Part shown: positions 420 through 15,944 of the stretch, in pieces
Layout: each line of letters begins with the position of its first letter
Position numbering within the stretch: position 1 is the first letter of the stretch
NCBI GenBank assembly: GCA_021813655.1
Contig: JAKAJU010000189.1
Coordinates: 2,229-66,228 of the forward strand
DNA length: 64,000 nt
Reading direction: 5' to 3'
From: Chloroflexota bacterium
Lineage (GTDB): Bacteria; Chloroflexota; Limnocylindria; Limnocylindrales; CSP1-4
Translations under genes and position numbers: made by a program
The notes under the pieces: generated by a model
The model's input: the letters and a program-made list of their open reading frames with translations, nothing else
Database searches by the model: none
What the model was told of the DNA's origin: nothing

Positions 420-472
420 CGACCAGGCCACGGCTCCCGGGCTGGCCCTGCCCGCCGGCCGGGAGCCGTCCG

Positions 473-1081
473 TCACGCTGACGCGGCCTTCGTCTTCGAC
501 CGGGACGGTCGCGCAGGCGTGTAGTCGCCCCCGACGACCGGCTCGATCAGACCGTATGCGCCGTCGTTGCGGCGGTACAGGACCGCGATGCGTTCCGTCT
601 CCGCGTTGACGAACACGAAGAAGTCGTGGCCGAGGTCGTCCATCCGCTCGATGGCGTCCTCCTCGAACATGGGCTCGATCGCGAACCGCTTCGTCTTCAC
701 GACCCGCCTGTCCCGAGCCTCGTCGGCCGTTCCGTCCGCGATCCTGCGCAGAAGCTCCTTCTCCTCGGGCGGCCGGACGCGATGCGACCGCGGCTTCTCC
801 CGGAAGTCGACGGCGCGCCGCTCGATCTTGTCCACGACCTCGTCGATCCCAGCCTCGTGGGTGGGCCCTGCCGCCCGACCGCGAAGCGGCTCGCCGTCGA
901 TCACGAGCGTGACCTCGACGATCCGGGAGTCCGCCGCGCTGCGGTGCTTCTCGACGGAGAGCTCGACGAGCGCATCCGATCGGTCATCGAGGAACCGTTC
1001 GAGGCGCGCCATCTTTCGCTCGGCGTACTCGCGCGTGCGATCCGGGACGTCGATGTTCTTGCCCTTGACGATCGTCCTCAC
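473..1081 (-). CDS. hpf: Ribosome hibernation-promoting factor (long HPF)
   Basis: The sequence VRTIVKGKNIDVPDRTREYAERKMARLERFLDD...RIVEVTLVIDG... has the sigma54-modulation/RaiA fold signature plus the long-HPF C-terminal dimerisation domain. A GTG start at 1081 sits 6 nt after a GGGAGG SD on the minus strand. The ORF-track start at 1369 is probably an over-extension. Confidence 0.85.
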   Translation of the reverse strand: MRTIVKGKNIDVPDRTREYAERKMARLERFLDDRSDALVELSVEKHRSAADSRIVEVTLVIDGEPLRGRAAGPTHEAGIDEVVDKIERRAVDFREKPRSHRVRPPEEKELLRRIADGTADEARDRRVVKTKRFAIEPMFEEDAIERMDDLGHDFFVFVNAETERIAVLYRRNDGAYGLIEPVVGGDYTPARPSRSKTKAASA

Positions 1082-1248
1082 GGATGACCTCCCATGGGCG
1101 ACGCGGCGCGCGGCGCTGCGGTCGATCCGCAGCGAACGCGCGCCGGCATGGCCGATGTCACGACCCGAGTATAGGTCCGCTGCCCGCGTCCTCCGCCAGC
1201 GCCCGATGGCCGGTCCGCGGGATACCGAGGTCCCGAACGCCGGCCGGC

Positions 1249-1977
1249 TCACCGCTCTCGGGCGAACGTGATGGCCGAGACCGCGACGGCGCCGGCCGAG
1301 TAGATGACGAGGGCGCCTTCCCGGAGCGTCGCGCCGGTCGTCATCACGTCGTCCACGAGGACGACCCACCGGCCGCTGACCCGGGCTGTCACGGATGGAG
1401 GCACCGCGAAGGCTCCGGCGACGTTCCCGGCGCGCCCGGCCCGGTCGAGGTCCGCCTGGCGGCCGGTGCGCCGGGCGCGGACCAGCGCGCCCGCGACGGG
1501 GACGCCTGCCGCCCGACCCGCCTCCCGTGCCAGAAGCTCAGCCTGATCGAAGCCCCGCTCGCGAAGGCGCTCGCGATGGACCGGCACGGGGACGAAGAGG
1601 TCGCCGCGCATCCCGCACGCGGTCCACCTGCGCGCCAGCGCATTCCCGAGCGGCCGTGCGAGCCGCCGTTCGCCGCCGTACTTGAGGGCATGGATCGCGG
1701 CGCGGCCGAGCCCTGCGTACGGGATGCACCACTCGTGGGCGACGAGGGGAAGCGGCACGTCCGAGGGCACGCCGACCGCCACCCCGGGCGGGAGTCCGAG
1801 CCGAACGTCGAGCGCCGCCTCGCACGCATGGCAGAGCACGACCCCCTCCCGGCCGCAACCAGGGCACGTGGGGGGCAGGACCAGGTCGAGGAGGTGCGAG
1901 GCACCGACGCGGACGGCACGCCCGGCGGGAACGAGGGGTGAAGGCGTCATCGGGGGATCATCGGCCGGGGCCGTCAT
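1249..1977 (-). CDS. ComF-family phosphoribosyltransferase-domain protein
   Basis: An N-terminal 4-Cys cluster (CPGCG...CHAC) is followed by the C-terminal PRTase motif VVLVDDVMTTGATL. A comF-like gene next to hpf is the arrangement seen in actinobacteria. The start could be M60 or M69 of the ORF. Confidence 0.7.
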   Translation of the reverse strand: MTAPADDPPMTPSPLVPAGRAVRVGASHLLDLVLPPTCPGCGREGVVLCHACEAALDVRLGLPPGVAVGVPSDVPLPLVAHEWCIPYAGLGRAAIHALKYGGERRLARPLGNALARRWTACGMRGDLFVPVPVHRERLRERGFDQAELLAREAGRAAGVPVAGALVRARRTGRQADLDRAGRAGNVAGAFAVPPSVTARVSGRWVVLVDDVMTTGATLREGALVIYSAGAVAVSAITFARER

Positions 1978-2039
1978 CCGGCGACCACGCTGCGCTGGCC
2001 GCCGGGTCGCCACCGGGTCACCGCGGGGTCGCCGACGGT

Positions 2040-2405
2040 TCAGCGCTCGATCACCACCCTGTCTCCGAGCGCTGTGCCGGAGCGGTCGATGGTCCCGACC
2101 GGGAGCTCGATCGTCCCGGAACCCCCGCGCACCCACCAGACGACGCCGATCCACGGCCGGAGCGCGCGCCGGAGGCCAACGACCGCCCGGGTCCCATCCG
2201 ACTCCTGGCGCCCGACGAAGACGCAGTCGATCGGAAAGCGCATGAAGAGCATGTGGATGCTCGGCGAGCCCGGCAGCCAGAGACCCGCGCCATCGGGTAG
2301 GCCGGGGCGCCCCATGAGCCCCATGAACTTCTCGACGAAGCCCTCGCCGAGCTCGAGGTCCGCGGCGAGGGCGGTCCCCCGCGTCAGGTTCCGGGCGCTC
2401 GCCAC
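2040..2405 (-). CDS. DUF192 (COG1430) family protein
   Basis: The C-terminal 95 aa (MGLMGRPGLPDGAGLWLPGSPSIHMLFMRFPIDCVFVGRQ...GTIELPVGTI) match DUF192. The upstream part of the ORF is low-complexity Ser/Arg junk that overlaps tadC, so the start was placed at an internal GTG. The start is uncertain (2324-2405). Confidence 0.5.
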   Translation of the reverse strand: MASARNLTRGTALAADLELGEGFVEKFMGLMGRPGLPDGAGLWLPGSPSIHMLFMRFPIDCVFVGRQESDGTRAVVGLRRALRPWIGVVWWVRGGSGTIELPVGTIDRSGTALGDRVVIER

Positions 2406-2421
2406 CGACCGGACACCAGCC

Positions 2422-3360
2422 TCACTGAGGCATGCCGGAGAGGCCACGGATGAGGAGGATGATCGCCGGCCCGAGGATGACGATGAAGAGCGTCGGGAAG
2501 ATGCACCCGATGAGCGGGAACAGCATCTTGATCGGCGCCCGCTGGGCCATCTCCTCGGCGCGCTGCCGGCGGTCGATCCGCATCTGCTCGGACTGGACCT
2601 GCAGGACCTTGGAGATCGAGACACCCAGCTGCTCGGCCTGGATGACCGCGGAGATGAAGTTCGTGAGGGCCTGGACCTCGGTCCGCGGGACGATGTCGCG
2701 GAGCGCGTCGCGGCGCGTCTTGCCCATCCGGACCTCGGCGAGCGCGCGGCGGAACTCGTCGGGGAGCGGGCCCTTCATCTTCTCGACGACCTTCGCGAGC
2801 GCGGCGTCGAAGCCGAGGCCGGCGCGCACCGAGATCGTGATGAGGTCGAGCACGTCCGGGAGCTGCAGGACGATGAGCTTCTGGCGGGCCTTCACGCGGC
2901 GCCCGAGCCAGAACTCCGGCGCCATGTATCCGACGGCGATCCCCGCCGCTCCCAGAGCGATGGCCAGGGGGAACCCGACGCCGATGAACAGCCAGAAGAG
3001 GAGGAAGAAGACGACGCCCGCGACGCCCGCCGCGATGACCTTGATCCCCATCCACTCCTGGACGCCGACCTCGCCCGGGTTCCCTGCCTGCGCCAGGCTC
3101 TTCTCCGTGCGGTCGGCGAAGCTTGCCGAGGCGAATCGCTTCGAGAGTCCGGAGAGCCGGAGCGCGAGCGGCCGCAGGGTGCGTTCGGCGAACGGCTGCT
3201 GGAGCTCGAGCTCCTCGAGCGACTTCGCCTGCATCGTGCCGAGCTGAGAAAGGCGCGCCTGGACGGGGTCCGTGGAGCGTCCGCTCGCGACTGCCACGGC
3301 GATGAGGACGATCGACGCGGCGGCCGCGGCGGCGATGATGATCGGGAGGAATGCGCCCAT
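2422..3360 (-). CDS. tadC: Tad pilus assembly inner-membrane platform protein TadC (T2SS-F family)
   Basis: Polytopic membrane protein with the type II secretion F-domain pattern and the C-terminal ...MLFPLIGCIFPTLFIVILGPAIILLIRG. It sits immediately downstream of tadB. Confidence 0.85.
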   Translation of the reverse strand: MGAFLPIIIAAAAAASIVLIAVAVASGRSTDPVQARLSQLGTMQAKSLEELELQQPFAERTLRPLALRLSGLSKRFASASFADRTEKSLAQAGNPGEVGVQEWMGIKVIAAGVAGVVFFLLFWLFIGVGFPLAIALGAAGIAVGYMAPEFWLGRRVKARQKLIVLQLPDVLDLITISVRAGLGFDAALAKVVEKMKGPLPDEFRRALAEVRMGKTRRDALRDIVPRTEVQALTNFISAVIQAEQLGVSISKVLQVQSEQMRIDRRQRAEEMAQRAPIKMLFPLIGCIFPTLFIVILGPAIILLIRGLSGMPQ

Positions 3361-3362
3361 CG

Positions 3363-4379
3363 TCAGACCTGGATGTCCACGATCCTGCGGATGAGGATGA
3401 AGCCGATCGCCATCATGAAGCCGCCGATCGCGAGGATGATGACACCCGCGGGAAGGCCGAGCACCTCGGGCGGCTTCGAGAACATCGGCTCCATGAAGCT
3501 CGGTGCGATGACGAACAGGAGAGCCATGATGCCGATCGGCAGGCCGGCCACGACGTAGCCGGACATCCGCTGCTGCGCAGTGAGGACGCGGATCTCGCCC
3601 TTGATCCGCATCCGCTCGCGGATCGTGAACGCGATCGAGTCGAGGATCTCGGCGAGGTTACCGCCGACCTGGTGCTGGATCGTGATCGCGGTGACCATGA
3701 GCTCAAGGTCGTCCGACCGGACGCGCCGCACCATGTTCTCCATCGCGCCGTCGAACGGGAGGCCGAGGTTGACCTCGCGGATCACCCGGCCGAACTCCAG
3801 CGAGATCGGCGGTCGCGACTCGCGCGTGACGAGCTCGATCGCCTGGAGGAACGACGACCCGGCGCGGAGGGCGTTCGCGATCAGGGTGATCGTGTCGGGC
3901 AGCTGCTTGTTGAACGCATTCAGTCGTCCGTTCTTGCGCCGGCCCACGTAGATCCGCGGCAGGAAGAACCCGACGACGGCCCCGATGACGAGGAAGATCG
4001 GGTTGGCCAGAGTCGGCAGCACGAGCGAGAAGGCGAGCATCACGACCGGGACCGCCACCGTGCTGCCCACCATGATCGCCATGTACTCGCTGACCCGCAG
4101 GTGCAGGTCGGCGCGGGCGAGGTCGCGGGCCATGGTCGCGCCGAAGCTGCGCTGCTCGACCGCCCTGTTGATCTGCGAGAGCGCCTCGCTCTGCTGGAGG
4201 AGCTCGGCGATCGAGGGCGACGCCTCCGTCTTCTTCTGCTCCTTCTGGCGCCGACCGGGCGAGACGTACCGATCGATGCGGCCCGAGACGCCACCGGAGC
4301 CCGCACCGGACAGCGCGAACGCGATGAGGACGATCGCGACGGCCGCGACGACGGCGACGGCGACGGCGACGGGGGACAT
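3363..4379 (-). CDS. tadB: Tad pilus assembly platform protein TadB (T2SS-F family)
   Basis: Paralogue of TadC with the same architecture (NAFNKQLPDTITLIANALRAGSSFLQAIE...). It lies between tadA and tadC. Confidence 0.85.
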   Translation of the reverse strand: MSPVAVAVAVVAAVAIVLIAFALSGAGSGGVSGRIDRYVSPGRRQKEQKKTEASPSIAELLQQSEALSQINRAVEQRSFGATMARDLARADLHLRVSEYMAIMVGSTVAVPVVMLAFSLVLPTLANPIFLVIGAVVGFFLPRIYVGRRKNGRLNAFNKQLPDTITLIANALRAGSSFLQAIELVTRESRPPISLEFGRVIREVNLGLPFDGAMENMVRRVRSDDLELMVTAITIQHQVGGNLAEILDSIAFTIRERMRIKGEIRVLTAQQRMSGYVVAGLPIGIMALLFVIAPSFMEPMFSKPPEVLGLPAGVIILAIGGFMMAIGFILIRRIVDIQV

Positions 4380-4391: not shown

Positions 4392-5801
4392 TCAGAAGCT
4401 GAAGCCGAACAGCCCGGGCGGGAGCTGGATGCCCATGACCTCGAACTTCTCGACGAACCGGGGACGGATCCCGGTCGGCTTCAGCCGGCCCTGGATGCGG
4501 CCTTCCACGACGCCCGTCTGCTCGAAGATGAAGACATCCTGCATGACGATGACGTCGCCTTCCATCCCCTGGACCTCGGTGATGTTCGTGATCTTCCGGG
4601 TCCCGTCCTTGAGGCGCGCCTGGTGAACGATCAGATCGACGGCGGAGGCGATCTGCTCGCGGATCGCGCGGAGCGGGAGCTCCACGCCGGCCATGAGGAC
4701 CATCGTCTCGAGGCGGGCGAGCATGTCGCGCGGGCTGTTCGCATGGCCCGTGCTCATCGAACCGTCGTGGCCCGTGTTCATCGCCTGGAGCATGTCGAGC
4801 GCCTCGCCGGACCGGCACTCGCCGACGATGATGCGGTCGGGCCGCATCCGGAGCGAGTTCCGGACGAGCTCCCGGATCGGGATCGCGCCACGACCCTCGA
4901 TGTTCGGCGGTCGGCTCTCGAGCGTGACCACGTGCTCCTGCCGGAGCTGCAGCTCGGCGGCGTCCTCGATCGTGATGATCCGCTCGTCGTTCGGGATGAA
5001 GGACGAGAGGACGTTCAGGGTCGTCGTCTTGCCCGAGCCGGTGCCGCCCGAGACGAACACGTTCATGCGGGCCTCGACACACGCGCGGAGGAAGTCGAAC
5101 ATCTCCGGTGTGGCCGTCCCGAATCGGACGAGGTCCTCGACGGTGAACGGGCTGGCTGCGAACTTCCGGATCGTCAGGACGGGGCCCACGAGCGAGAGCG
5201 GCGGGATGATGGCGTTGACGCGGGACCCGTCCGTGAGCCGGGCGTCGACCATCGGGCTCGACTCGTCGACGCGTCGGCCGATCGGCGCGATGATCCGGTC
5301 GATGATCCGCATGACGTGCTCGTCGTTCTGGAAGACGACGTTCGTCAGCTCGAGCTTGCCGCTCCGTTCGACGTAGACCTGGCGCGGCCCGTTGACCATG
5401 ATCTCGGTGATGCTCTCGTCGCGGAGGAGCGGCTCGAGCGGTCCGAGGCCGATGATCTCGTCGGTGATCTGCTCGAGCATCCGCACGCGTTCGGCGCGGG
5501 TGAGGGCGAGGCCCTCCTCGTCGACGACGCGGCTGAAGATCTCCTCGATCTGCCGGCGGACCTCGACCTGGTTGGAGAGGTCGAGTCGCGGGTCGAGCTC
5601 CTGGATGACGCGGGTCTGGATCCGGAACTTGACGTCGCGGAACGACTCGCGGACCGGCGCGGTGGCCAGGAGGCGCGCGGCCGAGGTCGGGGGTCCCGGC
5701 GGCATCCCGCCCGGCGCCGGAGCGACCGGGCTCGGTGCCGGCTCCGGCGCCCCCCCGGCACCCCCGGGTCTCGCGCTCTCGATGCGCTTCAGCAGGGACA
5801 T
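4392..5801 (-). CDS. tadA: Tad pilus ATPase TadA/CpaF (T2SS-E / VirB11 family)
   Basis: Walker A motif GGTGSGKTT, the ...RIIVGECRSGEA... segment, and the Asp/His boxes typical of CpaF secretion ATPases. Confidence 0.9.
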   Translation of the reverse strand: MSLLKRIESARPGGAGGAPEPAPSPVAPAPGGMPPGPPTSAARLLATAPVRESFRDVKFRIQTRVIQELDPRLDLSNQVEVRRQIEEIFSRVVDEEGLALTRAERVRMLEQITDEIIGLGPLEPLLRDESITEIMVNGPRQVYVERSGKLELTNVVFQNDEHVMRIIDRIIAPIGRRVDESSPMVDARLTDGSRVNAIIPPLSLVGPVLTIRKFAASPFTVEDLVRFGTATPEMFDFLRACVEARMNVFVSGGTGSGKTTTLNVLSSFIPNDERIITIEDAAELQLRQEHVVTLESRPPNIEGRGAIPIRELVRNSLRMRPDRIIVGECRSGEALDMLQAMNTGHDGSMSTGHANSPRDMLARLETMVLMAGVELPLRAIREQIASAVDLIVHQARLKDGTRKITNITEVQGMEGDVIVMQDVFIFEQTGVVEGRIQGRLKPTGIRPRFVEKFEVMGIQLPPGLFGFSF

Positions 5802-5860: not shown

Positions 5861-7114
5861 CTAGCGGAGCGAGAAGATCCCTCTCTTCCTCTCGACCTTG
5901 GCGCGCTGGCCCGACGCCTCCGTCTCGCCGCCGAGCAGGAACCGCGCGAGCTTGAGGATGTCCTGCGACACCTGCATCTCGCGGTTGCTCGTCACGAACG
6001 GCACGCCGCGGTTGAGAGCGTAGACGACCGTCCGGCCGTCGCTGATGATCTGGTGGTCGAACTTCCGGCCGATCGACTGCTCGGCGTCGGAGACACGGAT
6101 CCCGAGCGCCGAGTCGGCTCGGTTGAGGACGAGCCTGATGCGGTCCGCCGGGTAGCCGAGCTGCTCCGCGATCTCGAGGAAGAGCCGAACGCTCTTGATG
6201 CTCGTGATCTCCAGGGTCAGGACGGCGAGGATGACGTCCGCCGTGTCGAGGATCGCGAGCGTCGTGTCGCTGAACCATGCCGGACAGTCGACGATGACGA
6301 GGTCGCTCGACTGCCGGAACATCTCGACGACACGCTTGGCGGCCGCGGGCGTGATGAGGTCCGCCGTCTCGGGCGAGGGCGGCGCGAGGAGCACGCGCAG
6401 GCCGGACGAGTGCGACACGGTGAACGTCTCGAGCGACTCCACCTCGCCGCCCTGCATCTCCGGGATGAGGTCCGCGATCGACTTGGACCGCGGGTTGAGG
6501 TTCAGGAGGATCGCGACGTCGCCGAACTGGAACGCGGCATCCATGAGGACGACCTCGCCCGCCCGTTCGGCCGCGGCCGCCACGGCGAGGTTCACCGCGA
6601 CCGTCGTCCGTCCCACGCCGCCCTTCGGGCTGAAGACCGCCACGACGCGACCGGGTTCATGATCCGGCCGGGCGATCGCGTGGGCGTCCGGGCGCACCGG
6701 CACGGGCATCCGGCCCATCTTCTCGCGCTCGCGTTCGTAGACCTGTCGGATCGATGCTGTCAGCTCGTCGCTGCTGAACGGCTTGACGAGGAACTCGCGC
6801 GCGCCGGCGAGCATGGACCTGCGCAGGTAGTCCGCCTCACCCTGGACCGACATCATCACGATCGCCGCCGTGGGCACGATCGCGGCGAGCCGCTCCGTCG
6901 CCGTGATGCCGTCCATCTCGGGCATGTTGATGTCCATGAGCACGACGTCCGGCAGGAGCTTCGGGGCCATCTCGATGGCCTCGGGCCCCGACGCCGCGGC
7001 GCCGACGACCGTGAGATCGCGCTCGAAGCTGAGCAGCTTCGTCAGATGGTCGCGCGTCTCCGCGATGTCATCCACGATGAGGACGCGGATCTGCTCGTCC
7101 ATGGGCCTGCCCAT
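5861..7114 (-). CDS. cpaE: TadZ/CpaE: N-terminal receiver domain fused to a ParA/MinD-like ATPase
   Basis: The N-terminus (RVLIVDDIAETR...VVLMDINMPEMDG...MMSVQG...LVKPF) is a receiver domain that keeps the canonical DD, D, S/T and K residues. The C-terminal part carries the deviant Walker A motif SPKGGVGRTT. The start may be M1 (7114) or M5 (7102). Confidence 0.85.
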   Translation of the reverse strand: MGRPMDEQIRVLIVDDIAETRDHLTKLLSFERDLTVVGAAASGPEAIEMAPKLLPDVVLMDINMPEMDGITATERLAAIVPTAAIVMMSVQGEADYLRRSMLAGAREFLVKPFSSDELTASIRQVYEREREKMGRMPVPVRPDAHAIARPDHEPGRVVAVFSPKGGVGRTTVAVNLAVAAAAERAGEVVLMDAAFQFGDVAILLNLNPRSKSIADLIPEMQGGEVESLETFTVSHSSGLRVLLAPPSPETADLITPAAAKRVVEMFRQSSDLVIVDCPAWFSDTTLAILDTADVILAVLTLEITSIKSVRLFLEIAEQLGYPADRIRLVLNRADSALGIRVSDAEQSIGRKFDHQIISDGRTVVYALNRGVPFVTSNREMQVSQDILKLARFLLGGETEASGQRAKVERKRGIFSLR

Positions 7115-7154
7115 CTGCGACGGAGGCGGCGGCCGGTGATGGTCCGGCAGGCCG

Positions 7155-8036
7155 TCACTTCGTCGGCGGAAGGCTCGCCTCCAGGATCTGAGGAGGAAGG
7201 ACGCCGTACTCGGTGATGAGCGTCTTGAGGACCACGCCGCTCGTCTTGACGTCCGGCGCGTCCTTGTCCTGCGGGGAACGCAGCACCAGGGTGACGTTGT
7301 TGGCGGGGAGCGCGGAGCCCATCGTCAGCCCATCCTGCTGGACGAACTGCAGGACCTCCGCCTGTTGCGGCGTCATCGCCAGGATGACGACCTGCTGGGC
7401 GGTCGCGAGGTCCGTCAGGGCAGGAGCTCCGGTCGTGGCCACGGAGGTGCTCGCGGTCGCCCCCAGGATCGCCCGCACCTCGGCGTTCTGGATGATCACC
7501 TTGGACGAATCGCCCTCGAGGCCGGGGATGTCGATCGACTGCGGCGGCGCCGACGGCTCGGCTCCCGGCGCGAGCAGCGTCTCCTTGATCTTGATCGTCA
7601 TGACGATATCGACGCGGTCACCGGGGAGGATGAGGGTCCCGACGCCCGTGACCGCGTCGACGCGGACGGCGACCGCCACCATGCCGGTCGGCAGGTCCTT
7701 CGACACGCTGGTCTGCCCGGTGCCGCTGAACATCGTCTGCGACAGGTAGGCGCCCTTCGTGATGTCCGTGCGCGCCACCTGGCCCACTACCTCGCCCGGC
7801 TGGGCGAAGTAGTCCGGCTTCTTGTCGGTCACGGGAATCTGCAGCGCGGCAACCTGGCCTTCGCCGATCTTGTCGCCGAGTGGAATGTCCTGCGTCGCGA
7901 CGACCACGCTGGTCATCGGCGTCGCCGTTGGACCTCCGCCTCCGCCCTTGGAGTTGAAGACGAAGATGATGCCGACGAACGCGACGACAGCGAGGAGCAC
8001 CCCGACGACGAGGATCAGCCGGTTCGTGCGCTTCAC
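7155..8036 (-). CDS. cpaB: Flp pilus assembly protein CpaB/RcpC (SAF domain)
   Basis: N-terminal TM anchor, then a SAF-like domain (...TQDIPLGDKIGEGQVA...) and a C-terminal RcpC-like region. It sits between the pilin genes and tadZ. Confidence 0.8.
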   Translation of the reverse strand: MKRTNRLILVVGVLLAVVAFVGIIFVFNSKGGGGGPTATPMTSVVVATQDIPLGDKIGEGQVAALQIPVTDKKPDYFAQPGEVVGQVARTDITKGAYLSQTMFSGTGQTSVSKDLPTGMVAVAVRVDAVTGVGTLILPGDRVDIVMTIKIKETLLAPGAEPSAPPQSIDIPGLEGDSSKVIIQNAEVRAILGATASTSVATTGAPALTDLATAQQVVILAMTPQQAEVLQFVQQDGLTMGSALPANNVTLVLRSPQDKDAPDVKTSGVVLKTLITEYGVLPPQILEASLPPTK

Positions 8037-8230
8037 TCTGTGCCCACCCCCACCTGGTTGGAACCCAACTCTAGCACCGCACCGAACGGCCGGGACTATA
8101 CCAAAGGCCTATCGCGGGACAGGAGTACCGGATGCAGGATCTCGCCGTGTCGGATGGCGCGCTGCCGGCTGCCACATATCGAACGGCCGGCCCGGAAGGC
8201 CGGCCGTTCGATCGTTCGCGGGTCGCCCCG

Positions 8231-8416
8231 TCAGAGCGAGTTGCCGACGGTGCTCAGCAGCGAGCTGATCCCGTTGCCCATGAAGAGCAGGGCGACGATC
8301 GCCAGCACGGCGATGAGGCCCAGGATCAGGGCGTACTCCGCAAGGCCCTGGCCGCGCTCGTCGTGAGTGCCTGCAACGAAGAACGGATCGATGAGTGCAT
8401 GGAGATGGTCGAGCAC
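8231..8416 (-). CDS. flp: Flp/Fap family type IVb pilin
   Basis: The 61-aa protein carries the ...ERGQGLAEYALILGLIAVLAIVALLF... prepilin motif (G/XXXXEY). A GTG start follows a strong SD (GGAAGGAGGT). Confidence 0.8.
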   Translation of the reverse strand: MLDHLHALIDPFFVAGTHDERGQGLAEYALILGLIAVLAIVALLFMGNGISSLLSTVGNSL

Positions 8417-8629
8417 CAGGGCTACCTCCTTCCTGCCCGAGACCCCGGGATCGACGGGGCCGATCCGCCCGGCCGACGGGCGCGGCCGGCGCGACTGTGA
8501 CAGCGATGTGATCCGCGAGAGAGGTCGCCGGGCCGCGCGACGCCCGGCCCACCCTCGAGTCTGCTCACGAAAGCCGACCGCCGGTCAGGCTGTGCCCGGC
8601 CGGCGGTCGAGATCGCGCGTGCGGAGTCG

Positions 8630-8803
8630 TCAGACCGACGAGCCGACGGTGCTGAGGATGGTGCTGATCTGGCCACCGAGGAAGATGAGCGCCACGATGG
8701 CGATGATCGCGATGAGGGCGAGGATGAGCGCGTACTCGGCGAGGCCCTGGCCCTCCTCGTCCCGGCGGATGGACGCGATGAGTGCGGAGAAGTACTGGAT
8801 CAC
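8630..8803 (-). CDS. flp: Flp/Fap family type IVb pilin (second copy)
   Basis: The 57-aa product VIQYFSALIASIRRDEEGQGLAEYALILALIAIIAIVALIFLGG... is preceded by an AAGGAGGTGA SD 7 nt upstream of the GTG. The ORF-track entry 8630..9175 is an over-extension. Confidence 0.75.
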   Translation of the reverse strand: MIQYFSALIASIRRDEEGQGLAEYALILALIAIIAIVALIFLGGQISTILSTVGSSV

Positions 8804-9193
8804 TTGGCTGTCACCTCCTTTCCTCGAAGATCCCCCGGCACCTGCCGGGAGTCGGATGTGACCTGGATCGAAATCCCGGATCGGATGGCGCGACCGCCTC
8901 GGGAAAGATGCCACCGGCGTCAAGTCGAGCGCAAGGTGCGAAGGGAGCGCCGTTCGGCTCGCCACCCGACGTGGCGCGCCGCTCGCGTCCCTCCGGCTGT
9001 TGGGTTCGGGACCTCCCGGATCCGATCGGTTCGCGTGCTCGCGGTCCGAGCACGGCAACCCTAATCCCACGCGGCCGGGTGCGGCATGACCCGTTCGTCG
9101 GGGTGGGGTCTGGTGATTCGGTCCTGGGGGCCGCCTCCACTCGTCCCGCCCCGGGCCTCTCCCGGGCGATCGCACGCCCCGCGCGAGCAGCGT

Positions 9194-9409
9194 CTACTGC
9201 TGGACCTGGGCCCCGATGAAGTCGAGGATCGCCGCCAGCTGCGGCCCGAATACCACGATCGCGATCGTCGCGACGACGACGGCGATCCCGAGGGTGAGAG
9301 CGGCCTCCACGAGGCCCTGCCCGCGTTCGTGGCCGCGGGTGCCGTCCGCCGCGGTCCCGGCCGCGCGGCCGATGCGCGCGGAGGCGACCCGTGCGCAGGC
9401 CGTGTTCAT
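9194..9409 (-). CDS. Flp-like pilin, divergent third copy
   Basis: ...HERGQGLVEAALTLGIAVVVATIAIVVF... keeps the Gly and Glu of the prepilin motif but has Ala in place of the conserved Tyr. The leader is longer. The ATG overlaps the stop codon of the upstream kinase-like gene (ATGA). Confidence 0.55.
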   Translation of the reverse strand: MNTACARVASARIGRAAGTAADGTRGHERGQGLVEAALTLGIAVVVATIAIVVFGPQLAAILDFIGAQVQQ

Positions 9410-10566
9410 CCCTCGGGCAGGTCGATCGCGACGCGGAGTCGATGCCCTTCCTCGTCGATCTCCACGTCCGCGCCGATCGTCTCGGCGCGCTGCTCCACGG
9501 ACCGGATCGTCTCCTCGGGGAGCGCGGTCTCGGCCGCCTCGCGGATCTTCGGCGCCGCGTCCACGACCCGCTGGCGCATCATGGCCGCGAGGGCGGGCGG
9601 GACGTTGTCGCCCTCTGCCGTCTCCGCCTCTGCGACTCCGGCCGCGAGCGCGGCGACCGGCGCCGCGTACGGGGTCGCCATGACCGCGACGAGCCGTGTG
9701 CCCCAGTCGAGACGGAGCGAGACGTGATCCGGATGCGTGGAGATGAATCCCGCGAGCGTCTCGTCGATGATCCGGAACAGCGTGCTCTCGACGTCGATCG
9801 GGAGGCGGCGGTCGGGTCCGAGCGAGTCGAAGTCGATCGGGATCAGCGCGCGGCGGCTCCTCTCGCGCGCCACCCGCCGGAGCGTGGGCACGAGCCCGAG
9901 ATCGTCGAGCACCATGGGCCGGACGTCGAAGATGAACGTCTTCGTCGCTTCGAGCGTCCGCTCGACCATCCGCACCAGCTCGGCGATCTCCGCCGCGGCC
10001 GCGTCGGGGTTCGACGCCTGGAGCCGCTGGACGATCTGGGCCTGGAGGACGATGTTCGTCAGGCTCTGGGCCGGCCCGTCGTGCATCGAGCGTGCGATCT
10101 CGCGCCGCATGTCCTCCTGCGCGGTGAGCACGATCCGGGAGACGCCACCGGAGCGCTCCTTCTCGCCGGCACCGCCGGACGGCAGGTCCATGTCCTCGAG
10201 CTCCGCCCTGATCTCGACGAGCCTGTCGCGGAAGCGGGCGATCGCGCGGCGCTTGCCCTCGAGGACGTCGATCGACGCCTGCATGACGCTGGCCTTGCGG
10301 GTCATGGTCAGGAGCGCCTGGTACGCCTCGGTCAGTTCGTGGATCGCGACCGACCGCCCGCTCGTGACCTGGGCGATCCGTTCTCCGGCCTGCTCCACGC
10401 GCTGCTCGTGACGCGACGTTTCGTTGCGCGCCTGCTGCAGCAGGAGGTCGATCTCGGCGAGCTCAGCCTCGAGCCCCACGACGTCCGACGTGATGCGCGC
10501 GACGAGATCCGGTGCCGTCGCCGGGTCCGTCTCCGCGGGCCGGCCCCGGCTTCGCGCATCAGTCAT
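9406..10566 (-). CDS. HisKA_3-type histidine-kinase paralogue with a degenerate catalytic (ATP-binding) domain
   Basis: Coiled-coil N-terminus, then the H-box REIARSMHDGPAQSL (HisKA_3). In the CA domain the N-box Asn is replaced (DETLAGFISTH versus QEALQNIRKHA in the paralogue). No DxGxG (G1) or GxGL (G2) motif is present. Confidence 0.7.
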   Translation of the reverse strand: MTDARSRGRPAETDPATAPDLVARITSDVVGLEAELAEIDLLLQQARNETSRHEQRVEQAGERIAQVTSGRSVAIHELTEAYQALLTMTRKASVMQASIDVLEGKRRAIARFRDRLVEIRAELEDMDLPSGGAGEKERSGGVSRIVLTAQEDMRREIARSMHDGPAQSLTNIVLQAQIVQRLQASNPDAAAAEIAELVRMVERTLEATKTFIFDVRPMVLDDLGLVPTLRRVARERSRRALIPIDFDSLGPDRRLPIDVESTLFRIIDETLAGFISTHPDHVSLRLDWGTRLVAVMATPYAAPVAALAAGVAEAETAEGDNVPPALAAMMRQRVVDAAPKIREAAETALPEETIRSVEQRAETIGADVEIDEEGHRLRVAIDLPEG

Positions 10567-11299
10567 CGGGCATCTTGATCCAGCCCTGGCGCATGGCGTA
10601 CACGACGGCCTGCGTCCGGTCGTTCACCGACAGCTTCCGCAGGATGCTCGACATGTGGTTCTTCACGGTCTGCTCGCTGATCGAGAGCGTGAACGCCACC
10701 TGCTTGTTCGTCATGCCCTGGGCGATGTTGTCGAGGATCTCGACCTCCCGTGGCGAGAGGGGCGCGAAGATGGGCTGCGCCTCCTGCCCGTAGACGGCGA
10801 GCTCGCGGAACTCCTTGAGCACACGGCCCGCGACGGTGGGCTTGGAGAAGACCTTGTCGTTGATGAGGTACTCGCCGCTGCGGACGCGGCGGATGATCGT
10901 GACGAGATCGTCCGGGCCCACGTCCTTGAGGATGAACGCGGCAGCCCCGGCCTTGATCGCGTCGAAGAGCGCATCCTCGTCCTCCTCGTCGGCGAGGATG
11001 ATGATCCCTGTGGCCGCGAGCTCCCGCTTCAGCCGCTGGGTCGTCTCGATCCCGTTGGACAGGGGCAGCGTGAGGTCCATGAGGACGATGTCCGGCGTCA
11101 GCTCGACCGCCATGTCGAAGGCGTCGCGGGCGTTGTCCGCCTCGCCGACGATGATGAAGTCGACCTCGCGGGCGAGGATGTCCCGGATCCCGATCCGGAA
11201 GAACGCGTGATCGTCGACGATGAGGATCTTGGTGGGCTCTCCGGTCCCGCGTCGATCCGGCCCGCCACGCCGCCGATCCGGCCCGCTGTAATCGGTCAT
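10559..11299 (-). CDS. NarL/FixJ-family response regulator (REC + LuxR-type HTH)
   Basis: Receiver domain ILIVDDHAFFR...IVLMDLTLP... joined to a C-terminal LuxR HTH (LSPREVEILDNIAQGMTNKQVAFTLSISEQTVKNHMSSILRKL). The ATG at 11299 overlaps the stop of the upstream kinase (ATGA). Confidence 0.85.
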   Translation of the reverse strand: MTDYSGPDRRRGGPDRRGTGEPTKILIVDDHAFFRIGIRDILAREVDFIIVGEADNARDAFDMAVELTPDIVLMDLTLPLSNGIETTQRLKRELAATGIIILADEEDEDALFDAIKAGAAAFILKDVGPDDLVTIIRRVRSGEYLINDKVFSKPTVAGRVLKEFRELAVYGQEAQPIFAPLSPREVEILDNIAQGMTNKQVAFTLSISEQTVKNHMSSILRKLSVNDRTQAVVYAMRQGWIKMPDD

Positions 11300-12489
11300 C
11301 CTGGCTGCCCTTCCCCTTCGATGCTGAGTCGGACCACGGTGCCCGCCCCCGGCTTCGATCGGACGACCACGGTCCCCCCGACCAGCTCGGCGCGTTCCCG
11401 CATGAACTGGAGCCCGAAGTTGTGCCGCCCGCGCGACCCGATCGCGTCGACGTCGAAGCCGCGCCCGTCGTCGCGGACCTCGAGCACCCACCCTTCGTCG
11501 GAACGCGACGTGACGATGGCGACCGTCCGGGCGGCCGCGTGCTTGCGGATATTCTGCAGCGCCTCCTGGAGCACACGGAGGACGACGACCTGCTGCATCT
11601 CCGAGAGCGCCTCGGCGGGCCCCTCGAGGTCTGTCTCGGTCCGGACCTCCACGCTCGAGGTGAAGGTGTCCACGGCTTCCCGGATCGCGCCGTCGAGCCC
11701 GACCTCCGCGAGAGCCGGCGGGCGCAGCTGGCCGATGAAGCTCCGGACGTCAGCGAGCTCGCGCCGCATCACCTCGCGCAGGTATCGCAGCTCCGTGCGT
11801 GCGAGCCGTGGGTCGCGGTCCATGAGTCGCTCGACGTAGTCCACCTGGAAGAAGGCGTTCGCGATCGTCTGGGCGGGCCCGTCGTGGATCTCCTGCGCGA
11901 GGCGGACCCGTTCCTGCTCCTGGGCCTCCACGACGCGCATCCGCAGATCCGACGGGCTCAGCGGGACGCCGTCGTCCACGCCGAGCGACGTGTCGTGGCG
12001 CTCCAGGAAGAGCCAGGCGTTCTCGAGGCTCCGCGTGACGATCTCGAGGCGCGACAGGTCGCTCTGCTCGTCGCCGAGCACGGATCCGGTGATCTCCACC
12101 GCGCGCCGGAGCTCCTGGCGGACCGCGCCCTCGGCCGCGCCCTCCGCGGCGAGCGCGAAGGCCTCATCGGATCCGGGCTCCTCAACGCCGCCCGCCGCCT
12201 CGGCTGCCGGCGGCGGGCCGTCGCCGCGGACCAGGCGGCGGTCCATCCGGGCGAGCTCGTCGCGGTCGTGGTGCCAGCGCCGGAGCGCGAGCCGGTGCGT
12301 CTCGCGGTACAGGTCCGTCAGCCCGCGGAACTGGTTCGCCGCGTACCCGAGCGCGCTCTTCGCCTCCGCGTAGAGAGCGTCGAGTCGCTCGGCATCCTCG
12401 GACGGATGCACGACGGGAGCGTCGGAGCCGGGAGAAGCCTCCATCATGCGGAGTATACGGGCGTCCCGAGCCCCTTCCCCGACCTCCAC
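11296..12489 (-). CDS. Cytoplasmic sensor histidine kinase (HisKA_3 + HATPase_c)
   Basis: H-box LAQEIHDGPAQTIANA. The ATPase domain is complete, with an N-box QEALQNIRKHA, a G1 box VRDDGRGFD and a G2 box NFGLQFMRERAELVGG. No TM segment is present. GTG at 12489 follows an AAGGGGG SD. Confidence 0.8.
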   Translation of the reverse strand: MEVGEGARDARILRMMEASPGSDAPVVHPSEDAERLDALYAEAKSALGYAANQFRGLTDLYRETHRLALRRWHHDRDELARMDRRLVRGDGPPPAAEAAGGVEEPGSDEAFALAAEGAAEGAVRQELRRAVEITGSVLGDEQSDLSRLEIVTRSLENAWLFLERHDTSLGVDDGVPLSPSDLRMRVVEAQEQERVRLAQEIHDGPAQTIANAFFQVDYVERLMDRDPRLARTELRYLREVMRRELADVRSFIGQLRPPALAEVGLDGAIREAVDTFTSSVEVRTETDLEGPAEALSEMQQVVVLRVLQEALQNIRKHAAARTVAIVTSRSDEGWVLEVRDDGRGFDVDAIGSRGRHNFGLQFMRERAELVGGTVVVRSKPGAGTVVRLSIEGEGQPG

Positions 12490-12588
12490 GCGACCCCCTT
12501 GCGGGAGGCTGTCGCGTCGTCCGCCCCGGCGAGGCCGTTCGCCGTCACGCCCACGCTCGCGACACGACGGCGCGTGGCTGCGGGCCGG

Positions 12589-14226
12589 TCACGGGCACGC
12601 GATGCGATAGACGCGGATCGCGTCCGAGCCGTCATCGGCGCGCACCGTCGCCTCCGGGACCAGGTCGAAGCAGCCGGCAGCCTCCCCACCCGCATCGAGG
12701 ATCGCCGGCCACTCCCCGTGCGCCGGCTCGACGGAGACGACGAGGAGCTTCGCCCCGAAGGTCCGCGCCAGGTCCAGGACGTCGGCGGGGGACTCCTGCG
12801 GCAGGGCGAGGGCTGGAACACGGGCCGTCTCGGCGAGCCAGATCGGGAAGTCGGCGATCACGGGCGCGTTCTCGGCGAGGGGGATGCCGGCGCCGGTGGT
12901 CGTGTCGAGGAGCGCCCGGTAGCGCCGTTCGGCCTCGGTCGAGACGGCCCCGATCCCGGTGATCGTCACGAAGAGCATCGGGATCGTGAAGAGGATGACC
13001 GCCGCGGGGGCGAGGAGTGCCGACCCGCGTCCCCACCCGCGTCGCGTCGCGACCCACGCCACGAGCATGTCGAGGCCGGCCATCGCGCTGACGACGAGGA
13101 GGACGTGGATCGGGCCGCCGGCGTGGAGGAACGTGCCCCAGAGCGTCGCGACGGGGAAGACGAGCGTGGTCGCGAGGAACGTGAGCGCCGCCCCGACCAG
13201 AAGCGGTCGGAGGACGACGGAGCGCAGGAACCAGGGAAGGGCGACGATCCCGATCGGGCCGACCGGGAGTGCCGGGATCAGCAGGACGGCGAGGGTGTTG
13301 TGCAGGAACGCGTCCACGCGGTCCGAGACGAGCTTCGCGGGACCCTGGGCGAGCCAGGCACCGAGCGTCGGCTTGTCCGCCCAGCCGAAGACGTCGTTGC
13401 CCGTGCGGAAGTAGGCGTTGGAGAGCGCCTGCCCGGGCAGCGGGGTGCCGAAGACGGCCCACTGCCGGATCGTCCACGGCACGTAGACGGCGATCGCCGC
13501 GAGGGCCGGGGTGGCGAGCAGGCGGACGTACGCGCGGATCCGCGCCCCCTCGCCCGCGACGGCTCGCGTGGCCCCCCACGCGACCCCGACCCACGCGAGC
13601 GCGTACCAGGCCGCCTCGTTCCGGGTCAGCGCGGCGAGGCCGAGGAGGAGTCCGATGCCCAGCAGGCGGGGATCGGCGAGGCGTGCGCCCCGTGGATCGC
13701 GGACGACGCGCTCCATGAGGATGCAGGCGGAGACCGCCGCGACCGTGAAGGGCGCCGTCGAGTCCGGGAGCGCGCCGTAGAGGACGAGCGGGCCGTAGAG
13801 CGCGGCGACGATGCCCGACCCGACGGCGAGCACGCGCCCGCGGAGCGGGGCGAGCCGCCGCTCCTCGGCGAGGTCAGCGGCAAGGCGCCATGCCAGGACC
13901 GGCACGATCGCGCTCACGAGGACGCCGGCGACCTGTGCGGACCGGAATGTCGTCCCGAGGACCGCGAGGAACGGGAGCGAGAGGAACGTGGGCAGCGGGA
14001 GCCAGATCTCGAACGCCGGACGCGGGAGCGTGAGCGGCGGCAGGTAGTACGACCAGAGTGCGTCGCTCACGAGCCCGCGCCCTTCGACGGCGTTGCGCGC
14101 GACGCCCCAGTAGTACGCGGTGTCCTCGGGGACCGCGAAGGGGACGGCCGCGGCGGCGACGATCCGGACCGCGACGGCGAGCCCGAAGATCGCCGCCGCT
14201 GAGACGATGGCCTCGCGTCGGGTCAT
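12589..14226 (-). CDS. GT39/ArnT-PMT-like polytopic glycosyltransferase (GT-C fold)
   Basis: 545-aa multi-TM protein with an N-terminal AVPEDTAYYWGVARNAVEGRGL loop that resembles the PMT/ArnT DE-motif loop. Confidence 0.7.
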   Translation of the reverse strand: MTRREAIVSAAAIFGLAVAVRIVAAAAVPFAVPEDTAYYWGVARNAVEGRGLVSDALWSYYLPPLTLPRPAFEIWLPLPTFLSLPFLAVLGTTFRSAQVAGVLVSAIVPVLAWRLAADLAEERRLAPLRGRVLAVGSGIVAALYGPLVLYGALPDSTAPFTVAAVSACILMERVVRDPRGARLADPRLLGIGLLLGLAALTRNEAAWYALAWVGVAWGATRAVAGEGARIRAYVRLLATPALAAIAVYVPWTIRQWAVFGTPLPGQALSNAYFRTGNDVFGWADKPTLGAWLAQGPAKLVSDRVDAFLHNTLAVLLIPALPVGPIGIVALPWFLRSVVLRPLLVGAALTFLATTLVFPVATLWGTFLHAGGPIHVLLVVSAMAGLDMLVAWVATRRGWGRGSALLAPAAVILFTIPMLFVTITGIGAVSTEAERRYRALLDTTTGAGIPLAENAPVIADFPIWLAETARVPALALPQESPADVLDLARTFGAKLLVVSVEPAHGEWPAILDAGGEAAGCFDLVPEATVRADDGSDAIRVYRIACP

Positions 14227-14233: not shown

Positions 14234-15922
14234 TCATCCGCATCGCGTGTCGCTCGGGTCCAGGCAGACCGGATAGAGGGCGAGCCGCGGGATGCCCCCG
14301 TCGGTGGATGGCACCGCGAAGACGGGCGCCCCGATCCACGACGGCCTCGCCGCTCCCTCGAGGACGGGCACGAGGCTCGACGCGACGGCGTCGCGCTCGA
14401 GCACGAGCCAGCGGATCCCGTACGCGCGCGCCACGGCCTCGATCGTCCCGATCGGGTCGTTGGGCGTCACGACACCCGGTCGTCCGGTCCAGTAGTGCAT
14501 CCCCGCCGCGTCGATCGACAGCAGCCGGTCATCCGGCGCCACGCCGAGCCGGTCCATCTCGGACGCGAGCGCGATCCTCGGCTGGCGCTCCGCGTCCCAA
14601 GCCCGGAGCGTCCCCAGCCCGAACGGGATGGAGGTCAGGACGACGAAGCCGACCGTCACCCACACGAACACGCGCCCCGCCGACCCTTCGCGCCACGACG
14701 GCCGGCGCCGGGCCACGAACGCGACTGCAGCGAGCACGCCCTCGAGGCCGAGGATGTACGCGTAGGGAGCCAGCCCGATGGCGGAATGGATGAACGCGCC
14801 CCCGGGCACGTGGAGCGGATAGACGAGCGTCGCACCGGCGAACACGACAGCGGCGTAGACGAACCATGGCGCGAAGTCGATTGACCGCCGCCGTTCCCAT
14901 GCGCCGACGATCACCAGCGGCAGCAGGACGACCGAGCAGATGACAACCGCGAAGTTGGCGACCGCCGCGACGAGCCCGCCGAGGCGGCTCGCGAGGATCG
15001 GCCCCGGCCCCTGCGCGAGGAACCGTCCGAGCGTCGGGTCCACCGTGATCGAGTTCCACTCCGAGATCGTGCGGATCCACATCGCGGCCCCGTTCGAGCT
15101 GGTCGGGGAGATCGATCCGAACGTGGCCAGCTGGCGGAGCCACCACGGCCCCATGACCGCGAGGAACAGCGCGACGGCTCCGACGGCGGCGAGGACGCTG
15201 ACGGGCCGGCGGGTGGCGGGCGACCCCGAGGGTGCGGACGGCTCCCCGTGGGCGGCGGCGGCACCGCTCATCCGGTCGCGGCGGACGGCGAGCCACCAGC
15301 GGAGCCGGTCCCCGAGCCACACGAGCCCGATGGCGCCCATCAGGAGGACGCCGTCGTTCCGGGCGAGCGAGGCGAGGCCCGCGAGCAGCCCCGCGAGCGC
15401 GAACGACCACGCGCTCCCCTTGAGGCCGCGTGCGACGAGCCAGAGGGTCGCCGCGACGAGCGGCAGGAGCAGCGCGAAGTTCTCGGGCTGGCCCATGAAG
15501 ACCGTCCCGGCCGCCGGGATCGCGGCGAGGACGCCGGCGCCGGCCCCCACGATCGGCTGGGCGCCGGCATCCTTCGCGATCTTCCACGTGAGCGGCGCTG
15601 CCGTCGCGGAGATGAGGGCGAGCGGGAGCGCCGAGGCGAAGCCGGTGGGTCCGAGCAGGAGGATGAACGGGACCTGGATGAACGACGCGAGCGGGAGCCA
15701 GTGGGCGTTCGAGGGGACCGGGAGGACGGGTACGGCCGGGATCCGGTTCCCCACCTCGGCGAAGATCCAGACGAACGGGACGGTGAGGCCGTGGCCTCCC
15801 GCGATCGACCGCGCGACCTCGACGTAGTAGTAGGAATCGGGATACGCGGCGTCCGGGTAGATCGCGATGAGCGCGAGGCGGACGATGAGGGCCAGCCCGA
15901 ACAGGAGCAGGGGCGTGCGCAC
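14234..15922 (-). CDS. GT39/ArnT-PMT-like polytopic glycosyltransferase (paralogue)
   Basis: 562-aa multi-TM protein with IYPDAAYPDSYYYVEVARSIAGGHGL in its first loop, which fits PMT_2/ArnT-family architecture. Confidence 0.7.
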   Translation of the reverse strand: MRTPLLLFGLALIVRLALIAIYPDAAYPDSYYYVEVARSIAGGHGLTVPFVWIFAEVGNRIPAVPVLPVPSNAHWLPLASFIQVPFILLLGPTGFASALPLALISATAAPLTWKIAKDAGAQPIVGAGAGVLAAIPAAGTVFMGQPENFALLLPLVAATLWLVARGLKGSAWSFALAGLLAGLASLARNDGVLLMGAIGLVWLGDRLRWWLAVRRDRMSGAAAAHGEPSAPSGSPATRRPVSVLAAVGAVALFLAVMGPWWLRQLATFGSISPTSSNGAAMWIRTISEWNSITVDPTLGRFLAQGPGPILASRLGGLVAAVANFAVVICSVVLLPLVIVGAWERRRSIDFAPWFVYAAVVFAGATLVYPLHVPGGAFIHSAIGLAPYAYILGLEGVLAAVAFVARRRPSWREGSAGRVFVWVTVGFVVLTSIPFGLGTLRAWDAERQPRIALASEMDRLGVAPDDRLLSIDAAGMHYWTGRPGVVTPNDPIGTIEAVARAYGIRWLVLERDAVASSLVPVLEGAARPSWIGAPVFAVPSTDGGIPRLALYPVCLDPSDTRCG

Positions 15923-15944
15923 GGCCCGACTCTAGCATCGGGAG

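Follow-up and report, generated by a model that had tools for sequence, protein, structure and literature searches.

A Tad pilus locus of Limnocylindria-type Chloroflexota with an embedded two-component system and a predicted ATP-blind kinase paralogue: a proposed regulon with shared promoters

A 64,000-nt stretch of DNA from a Chloroflexota bacterium of the Limnocylindria (contig JAKAJU010000189.1, positions 2,229 to 66,228; hereafter the window) carries a Tad/Flp (type IVc) pilus locus in which the genes for a histidine kinase (HK), a NarL-type response regulator (RR) and a second HisKA_3 protein (HK') precede three flp pilin genes and the genes of the assembly machinery. We propose, with a probability of about 0.55, that this locus is a pilus regulon with a built-in signalling module, which is expressed from several shared promoters rather than as one long transcript. 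On the minus strand, from 15922 to 2040, the gene order is GT-C2, GT-C1, HK, RR, HK', flp3, flp2, flp1, cpaB, tadZ, tadA, tadB, tadC and a DUF192 gene (Table 1), and the G+C content of the region is 69-74%. The machinery complement comprises the TadA ATPase, the two T2SSF platform proteins TadB and TadC, TadZ/CpaE and CpaB. No secretin gene is present in the cluster, the locus being of the monoderm type, and no gene for a TadV/CpaA prepilin peptidase was found between 1249 and 15922, the interval to which this search was confined. The gene identities proposed in a preliminary description of the locus proved correct by their domain matches (Pfam and NCBIfam scores).

The signalling genes are a constant part of this locus throughout its closest relatives. 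A one-genome-per-species scan with HK' yielded 538 loci, the best 80 of which all come from metagenome-assembled genomes (MAGs) of Limnocylindria-type Chloroflexota. Synteny was established by tblastn with 13 window proteins and, for some loci, by gene calls. Wherever the flank was long enough, GT-C2, GT-C1, HK, RR, HK', the pilin genes, cpaB, tadZ, tadA, tadB and tadC appeared in the same order and on the same strand, so the arrangement is not a matter of chance. The preliminary description had called for a search for this gene order and had raised the case of relatives devoid of the two-component system (TCS); all 80 of the 80 best species-level loci retain it. By tblastn, identity to the window proteins is about 88% for TadA, 80% for RR, 68% for TadZ, 50% for HK and 48% for HK'. 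The homologues of HK' all possess HisKA_3 alone, and their named sources are Chloroflexota or Candidatus Limnocylindrales. In more distant relatives the layout is looser: with an HK' only 33% identical, locus L091 retains the HK-RR-HK' triad behind two large membrane-protein genes; in L090 (HK' 38% identical; a 2.5-kb contig, 1..2493) RR and HK' are followed directly by a receiver-bearing tadZ, with neither pilins nor cpaB between them; and in L088 unrelated genes stand downstream of HK'. These layouts suggest that the link to the Tad machine survives rearrangement and that the pilin block is separable.

Within the unit, the signalling genes and the first pilin gene are interlocked. As read from the sequence, ATGA at 11299..11296 joins the HK stop to the RR start (4-nt overlap), ATGACTGA at 10566..10559 joins the RR stop to the HK' start (8 nt), and ATGA at 9409..9406 joins the HK' stop to the flp3 start (4 nt), which confirms the overlaps claimed earlier for the regulator with both kinases and for the flp3 ATG. 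Overlaps at all three junctions point to a common transcript and to translational coupling from HK through RR and HK' to flp3; given this coupling and the lack of a hairpin 3' of the flp3 stop in the window (z +0.88), the four genes are best regarded as one unit. In most loci of the class the GT-C genes join it, since the end of GT-C1 touches or overlaps the beginning of HK (as judged from homology-estimated starts); in the small clade to which the window belongs the distance from GT-C1 to HK is 94-141 nt. In L003, GT-C1 and the kinase appear as a single 777-aa fusion (6925..9258), as opposed to two genes in the near-identical L004 (6926..9258); the fusion is probably an indel error, as several such long-read MAGs show split genes.

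The pilins of the class fall into three subtypes, designated A, B and C. The type A pilin gene sits at the HK' stop: its start lies between -37 and +16 nt from that stop in at least 47 of 65 distinct loci, and an ATGA or GTGA overlap of the two genes occurs in 35 of 82 loci. The mature sequence of type A is distinct (GQGLVEYGL...AIDxATGG), and the flp3 product of the window, which has no Pfam match and shows a G-x4-E motif with Ala in place of Tyr, is a variant of this type, which is regarded as a minor pilin. Type B, to which flp2 belongs, is the major pilin, with the consensus DEEGQGLAEYALILALIAI...STVGNSV and two to four near-identical gene copies, and type C is the final pilin copy 5' of cpaB. 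Both flp2 and flp1 carry GQGLAEYAL; their Flp_Fap scores (Table 1) are under the cut-off of 32.2 bits, while their orthologues are flagged as Flp_Fap. The true start of flp2 is GTG 8803 behind the strong Shine-Dalgarno sequence GGAGGTGA, the start of the 181-aa open reading frame (ORF) being wrong. The tails of the major pilins are rich in Ser and Thr (..STILSTVGSSV), and GT-C (PMT_2-like) genes precede the kinase gene in L001-L086; O-glycosylation of the pilins is a possible link between the two.

The three subtypes differ in what follows them. In the 70 nt 3' of each pilin stop, folded as RNA and compared with shuffles, type A genes show no structure (median z 0.04, z < -2 in 9%, median stem 5 bp), and hairpins are found after type B (median z -3.85, z < -2 in 89%) and type C genes (median z -3.1, z < -2 in 82%), with a median stem of 13 bp for B and C pooled. 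A T-rich tail accompanies about one third of the type B and C hairpins. In the window, the hairpin after flp2 is a putative terminator or attenuator, and a 16-bp perfect hairpin follows flp1.

These hairpins bear on the earlier reading of the locus as a single polycistronic mRNA (HK-RR-HK'-flp3-flp2-flp1-cpaB-tadZABC), by which the regulators and the pilus genes would be strictly co-expressed. The segment from HK to flp3 holds, on account of the overlaps and the absence of an flp3 hairpin. All genes are also co-directional, and because a clear T-tract is present on only about one third of the pilin hairpins, read-through could occur. Continuation of this transcript to tadC is unlikely, given the hairpins of about -43 kcal/mol after flp2 and flp1, which recur class-wide, and the conserved promoter-like modules before the first major pilin gene and before cpaB. 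The three flp genes, described as tandem and directly downstream of the kinases, are indeed co-directional but not contiguous, with non-coding gaps of ~390 nt (flp3/flp2), ~213 nt (flp2/flp1) and ~194 nt (flp1/cpaB), and the absence of pilins and cpaB between HK' and tadZ in L090 marks the units as separable. The proposed regulon would instead comprise three transcription units: (GT-C2-GT-C1-)HK-RR-HK'-flp3; the major pilins with their attenuating hairpins; and cpaB-tadZABC-DUF192.

Each of these putative units is preceded by a conserved promoter-like module. The module 5' of the first major pilin gene occurs once per locus and was found in 70 loci as GGTACCATCGTCTCAGTG - N21 - TATAGT - short hairpin GCCCTC..GAGGG - palindrome TGAGTACTCA - CCAGGAGG - ATG. 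In the window clade it has diverged with the same spacing: ACGAACGGGTCAT (9098..9086), N21, TAGGGT (9063..9058) and a leader of ~250 nt. In nearly all loci, the module upstream of cpaB reads CCTAGCCCTTTGGTATAGTCGCG - N~14 - GGTGCTACAGTGGTGCCACCTGTCACAC, represented in the window by TAGGCCTTTGGTA (8111..8099) and TGCTAGAGT (8076..8068), and the module upstream of GT-C2 reads TAGCCCnTTCGTACC - N~26 - TGCTACGCT - N9 - GTG. In the window, TGCTAGAGT stands 6 nt from the GT-C2 GTG, which suggests a leaderless mRNA or a very short leader. Further, TATACT inside the conserved GCCCGTATACTC is a candidate promoter element for a leaderless HK mRNA in the window clade.

Several smaller features accompany these modules. 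The pilin leader of L003, L053, L083 and about 50 further loci contains the conserved hairpin GCCCTC-loop-GAGGG followed by the perfectly conserved 10-bp palindrome TGAGTACTCA, and the CCCTC of the 5' arm could pair with a GGAGG ribosome-binding site; the window clade lacks both hairpin and palindrome and has its ~250-nt leader in their place. In most loci of the main clade (e.g. L012, L029), direct repeats ACCTTGC-N4-ACCTTGC are located ~60-80 nt 5' of the cpaB box; the window clade has instead a single CCTTGCGC block in the flp2 leader (8929..8937 in the window). An Rfam scan of 7900..12800 returned only a sub-threshold chance match (P10, E 0.53), with no known RNA family in the long leaders. 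The sole terminator that a consensus scan proposed, at 8108..8123 on the minus strand, is probably a false positive, as it coincides in part with the conserved box and promoter region of cpaB.

The three modules have a box in common. Its core of ~14 nt, TAC(C/G)A(A/T)nGn(C/G)YYA, is centred at about -35 to -50 in the major-pilin, cpaB and GT-C promoter regions and occurs in both orientations. A position weight matrix (PWM) trained on the pilin-promoter boxes only has its best match 40 nt before the GT-C2 start in reverse orientation, with at least 8 bits in 25 of 57 loci versus 9 of 570 control windows, and its best match upstream of cpaB is 19 nt before TGCTACAGT, at the same position and in the same orientation in 58 of 64 loci. 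The use of both orientations fits the site of a dimeric transcription factor better than a sigma -35 element. Since RR is the only DNA-binding protein of the unit and its helix-turn-helix (HTH) is nearly invariant, we infer that the shared box is a candidate site for RR at the three promoters. In the window, the ACGAACGGGTCAT box upstream of flp2 is identical over 12 nt to the GT-C-promoter box of L076.

The position of the GT-C genes could also be taken to mean that the TCS mainly controls these glycosyltransferases, and hence envelope or protein glycosylation, with the box bound by another factor or acting as a promoter element and the Tad link being indirect. In favour of such control, the kinase gene abuts GT-C1 in most relatives, and a box precedes GT-C2. 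We regard it as most improbable, because conservation of the box is just as strong upstream of the major pilin and of cpaB, its opposite orientation from one promoter to another speaks against a sigma -35 element, and HK' is coupled to a pilin gene. In the window clade, moreover, a conserved -10 element splits the TCS from the GT-C genes, yet the TCS stays joined to the pilins.

A number of observations weigh against the proposed regulon. Its promoters, operator and terminators were derived solely from conservation and consensus, and a sigma-70 consensus scan of 7900..12800 gave no promoter. Only their co-conservation ties the box to the regulator, along with the fact that the unit encodes no other DNA-binding protein. 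Within the window itself the evidence for the box is weak and stems from positional homology: the box of the window clade is diverged, the main-clade PWM finds no significant match in the window, and the region upstream of GT-C2 there has no recognisable box. The degenerate pattern ACSAWYGNSYCAK matches once, at the expected place (9086..9098), and was set aside, as it was partly derived from that very sequence and one would expect 0.48 matches by chance. Some read-through from flp3 into flp2 may occur. Lastly, the Thr/Ser switch position of RR (T87 of CheY, by hand alignment) holds an Ala (Ala103) that at least 90% of 75 orthologues share; RR may therefore be activated in an atypical way. The best PWM match on the window, 11.5 bits at 38801..38821, was also discarded, as more than half of the shuffles reach this score and the site lacks the promoter spacing seen elsewhere. 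This site, GTACGAAAGTACTAG, is intergenic and lies upstream of an HD-GYP-type gene in a stretch of lower G+C content (0.648; 37009..42436), whose minus-strand genes encode the HD-GYP-type (HD_5) protein (37009..38430) and a 1163-aa AAA/TPR/BTAD/Trans_reg_C regulator (38945..42436).

According to the proposed model, HK would sense an intracellular cue via its private N-terminal helical domain and phosphorylate RR, which would bind the shared box at the promoters of the GT-C/TCS operon, the major pilins and the machinery operon and so switch the system on as a whole. The hairpins after the pilin genes would set a high ratio of pilin to machinery, as in a termination cascade. HK', unable to autophosphorylate and equipped with its His and DxxxQ, would act on a phosphorylated receiver; in its simplest role it would be a dedicated phosphatase or phosphoryl sink under the control of a distinct N-terminal coiled coil of its own.

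The maximal ORF of HK (11296..12489, from GTG 12489) matches HisKA_3 with 56.8 bits and HATPase_c with 54.1 bits; in the closest relatives, ATG 12444 rather than GTG 12489 is the conserved start. Its H, N, G1 and G2 boxes (EIHDGPAQ, LQNIRKHA, DDGRGFD and GLQFMRERA, respectively) are conserved in 52 orthologues. Neither HK nor HK' has a membrane segment, the maximal 19-residue Kyte-Doolittle mean being 0.71 for HK and 1.65 for HK', the latter in an Ala-rich strand of its degenerate C-terminal domain. The earlier description of an intact kinase, and of two kinases devoid of transmembrane segments, is thus borne out by domains, boxes and hydropathy. No sensor domain, DegS-like or other, was detected in the N-termini of HK and HK' by Pfam at E<=5 (for HK', in the N-terminal 140 residues). 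RR matches Response_reg with 83.5 bits and GerE with 75.2 bits, the domains of a NarL/FixJ-family regulator; among NCBIfam models it scores best against NarL, with 156 bits, below the equivalog cut-off of 250 bits. Apart from the switch position it is canonical, and its columns, including those of the HTH, are 90-100% conserved across 75 orthologues.

HK' matches HisKA_3 with 47.6 bits, and no HATPase_c match was obtained even at E<=5. In 111 homologues the H-box M161-H-D-G-P-A-Q-S168 and the dimerization and histidine phosphotransfer (DHp) domain are invariant, the Asn of the N-box is replaced (...DEALAGYL), and neither a DxGxG (G1) nor a GxGL (G2) motif is found. The AlphaFold2 model (pLDDT 81.9) consists of a helical hairpin (residues 18-125), a DHp domain (139-222, helices >80) and a degenerate alpha/beta domain resembling the catalytic and ATP-binding (CA) domain. 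Foldseek ranked DesK first (5.8e-8), followed by the VraS CA domain, with the ChpT-CtrA complex (4qpj) and RetS among the matches; DesK is also the best match by sequence. The invariant H-box and DHp, together with the conservation of the family, led us to reject a decaying pseudogene. At E<=1e-30, a set of 1.84 billion representatives contains just 144 clusters (50% identity) of this small family. The name 'DegS-type' that HK' bears at JGI is an automatic annotation, and the N-terminal sensor of DegS has no match in the protein. In HisKA_3 kinases the DxxxQ motif mediates phosphatase activity, as reported for NarX and DesK. Most probably, HK' is not a kinase and serves as a phosphatase or phosphoryl sink for phosphorylated RR, or else as a phosphotransfer protein of the Spo0B/ChpT kind, whose anatomy, a DHp domain with a His next to a nucleotide-blind CA-like domain, it shares.

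The second of these roles could involve TadZ. The receiver of TadZ (residues 1-130) is more conserved than the ATPase domain and retains D15, D16, D61, S89 and K111; its best PDB matches are CheY, Spo0A, Spo0F and NarL, and it is more canonical than the receiver of RR itself. TadZ receivers are usually said to be atypical, a view that reportedly goes back to the structure of E. rectale TadZ. The TadZ receiver is a possible second phospho-acceptor, judging from these residues. One may therefore envisage a four-step relay from HK to the Asp of RR, the His of HK' and the Asp of TadZ, or an HK' that branches to both receivers, so that pilin transcription as well as the activity or positioning of the Tad motor would be governed by one cytoplasmic signal. 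The architecture of HK', exactly that of Spo0B and ChpT with an invariant His, and the presence of 4qpj among its fold matches are in keeping with such a relay, as are the complete set of phospho-acceptor residues in a TadZ receiver resembling CheY, Spo0F and NarL rather than an atypical one, and the gene adjacency in L090, where HK' directly precedes tadZ. We consider the relay possible but rather doubtful, since HK' resembles ordinary HisKA_3 kinases (DesK) much more closely than it does Spo0B or ChpT, a phosphatase role explains the DxxxQ motif equally well, and the adjacency comes from one 2.5-kb contig. The three-protein phosphorelay of the preliminary description is to be read as a hypothesis. 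Co-variation can give no signal for the pairing of receivers with DHp domains, because RR and the DHp of HK' are almost invariant.

A further reading would make HK' an anti-kinase or co-sensor, which forms DHp heterodimers with HK in the manner of RetS and GacS or is trans-phosphorylated by the CA domain of HK, a second input entering through its distinct N-terminal coiled coil. By hhalign, HK and HK' are homologous with a probability of 99.5% over 138 columns, from the DHp to the N-box helix and stopping there, and their N-terminal domains show no homology (probability 0.6%); this combination, the co-encoding of the two proteins over the whole history of the class and the presence of RetS among the fold matches would suit a heterodimer. 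After the H-box, however, the DHp helices of the two proteins differ at most surface positions, and paralogous kinases usually avoid heterodimers, so that we hold this reading to be improbable.

Table 1. Genes and putative regulatory elements of the Tad locus, with positions in the window
Feature	Positions	Strand	Evidence and remarks
GT-C glycosyltransferase 2 (GT-C2), first gene of the conserved unit	14234..15922	-	PMT_2 35.4 bits; ~13 hydrophobic segments, multi-pass membrane protein
GT-C-like membrane protein 1 (GT-C1)	12589..14226	-	No Pfam family; ~15 hydrophobic segments
HK, intact cytoplasmic HisKA_3 kinase	11296..12444	-	HisKA_3 and HATPase_c; H, N, G1 and G2 boxes
RR, NarL/FixJ-family regulator	10559..11299	-	Receiver and GerE HTH
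HK', ATP-binding-deficient HisKA_3 paralogue	9406..10566	-	HisKA_3 without HATPase_c
flp3, divergent type A Flp-like pilin	9194..9409	-	G-x4-E motif, then hydrophobic helix; ATG overlaps HK' stop
flp2, major-type Flp pilin	8630..8803	-	Flp_Fap 22.3 bits; GTG start, Shine-Dalgarno GGAGGTGA
flp1, second Flp pilin	8231..8416	-	Flp_Fap 25.1 bits
CpaB/RcpC	7155..8036	-	SAF and RcpC domains
TadZ/CpaE ATPase with N-terminal receiver	5861..7114	-	Response_reg 94.7 bits; AAA_31/ParA
TadA/CpaF ATPase	4392..5801	-	T2SSE 216 bits
TadB	3363..4379	-	T2SSF
TadC	2422..3360	-	T2SSF in orthologues; weak UpsF match
DUF192 protein, conserved last gene of the cluster, start uncertain	2040..2420	-	DUF192 45.9 bits; follows tadC in L001-L005
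Extended -10-like TGCTAGAGT, 6 nt before GT-C2 GTG	15929..15937	-	Aligned with TGCTACGCT at the same start distance in ~57 loci
-10-like TATACT inside conserved GCCCGTATACTC, 7 nt before ATG 12444	12452..12457	-	Invariant in the window, L001, L007 and L010; flanks unalignable
Candidate operator box ACGAACGGGTCAT upstream of flp2	9086..9098	-	Positional counterpart of the GGTACCATCGTCTCAGT box, likewise 21 nt from a -10-like hexamer
-10-like TAGGGT of putative major-pilin promoter	9058..9063	-	TAGnGT conserved in window clade; corresponds to TATAGT/TATATT in 70 other loci
Hairpin after flp2, followed by GGCUUUCGUG	8574..8610	-	Minimum free energy -42.9 kcal/mol; z -4.18; matched by none of 200 shuffles
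16-bp perfect hairpin after flp1	8178..8212	-	Minimum free energy -42.6 kcal/mol; z -4.39
Candidate operator box TAGGCCTTTGGTA, reverse orientation, upstream of cpaB	8099..8111	-	Fixed-position PWM match in 58 of 64 loci; alignment
Extended -10-like TGCTAGAGT of putative cpaB-tad promoter	8068..8076	-	TGCTACAGT or TGCTAGAGT in nearly all loci

Beyond the cluster, genes for a ComF-like phosphoribosyltransferase and a ribosome hibernation factor lie 3' of the DUF192 gene (473..2154 in the window, minus strand), a neighbourhood that is also kept in L001-L005.

The Limnocylindria are widespread uncultured Chloroflexota of soil and freshwater, and we found no literature on their pili. The locus offers a compact, class-wide and testable model composed of a kinase, a regulator, an ATP-blind paralogue, a receiver-bearing TadZ and a shared box, which could show how a Tad system of the monoderm type responds to an intracellular cue and whether phosphorylation reaches the pilus motor. 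With a canonical, conserved TadZ receiver beside a His-carrying pseudo-kinase, it is a good place for testing phospho-control of pilus assembly. If the relay were true, HK' would be a phosphotransferase of the Spo0B/ChpT kind with an independent origin from a HisKA_3 kinase, devoted to a pilus machine.

Individual components of the system resemble known ones. HK' shares with Spo0B of Bacillus and ChpT of Caulobacter and Brucella a DHp four-helix bundle with the phospho-accepting His and a CA-like domain that does not bind ATP, but differs from both in being a HisKA_3 protein by sequence, in retaining DxxxQ and in having a 125-residue N-terminal helical hairpin. With DesK and NarX it has the invariant H-D-x-x-x-Q motif in common, DesK being its closest match in sequence and fold, whereas these two are membrane sensors with working ATP-binding domains. 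As regards the hairpins, in the tad locus of Aggregatibacter actinomycetemcomitans the pilin gene is reportedly followed by a terminator or attenuator that brings about a high pilin-to-machinery ratio, a finding ascribed to Kram et al. 2008; unlike that locus, the one described here has several pilin copies, each with a hairpin, and a separate conserved putative promoter for the machinery.

As for the control of Tad loci by embedded regulators, the preliminary description went too far in stating that the arrangement is not the textbook one, since a TCS embedded in a tad locus is an already established principle. In Pseudomonas aeruginosa, the NarL/LuxR regulator PprB and the kinase PprA are encoded inside the flp-rcp-tad locus, whose five transcription units are under positive control of PprB (PMC3510237). 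Gene content likens the two systems, each with a NarL/LuxR-type regulator and a kinase encoded inside a Tad locus, which in the present case would likewise consist of several units. The P. aeruginosa locus differs in that it belongs to a diderm, includes a secretin gene, and has neither a HisKA_3-only paralogue nor GT-C genes nor coupling of a pilin to the regulators; the TadZ receiver, in turn, is canonical in the locus described here. In Pectobacterium, the TCS ECA0785/0786 flanks the flp/tad genes and is needed for the expression of the pilin and tad genes (PMC3767616), but it consists of two components only, an OmpR-type regulator and a BaeS-like kinase, in a diderm plant pathogen. Compared with these precedents, the locus described here stands apart by its third HisKA_3 protein, which is ATP-blind and coupled to a minor pilin, by a canonical receiver on TadZ, by the presence of GT-C genes, and by its occurrence as a monoderm-type locus in an uncultured class.

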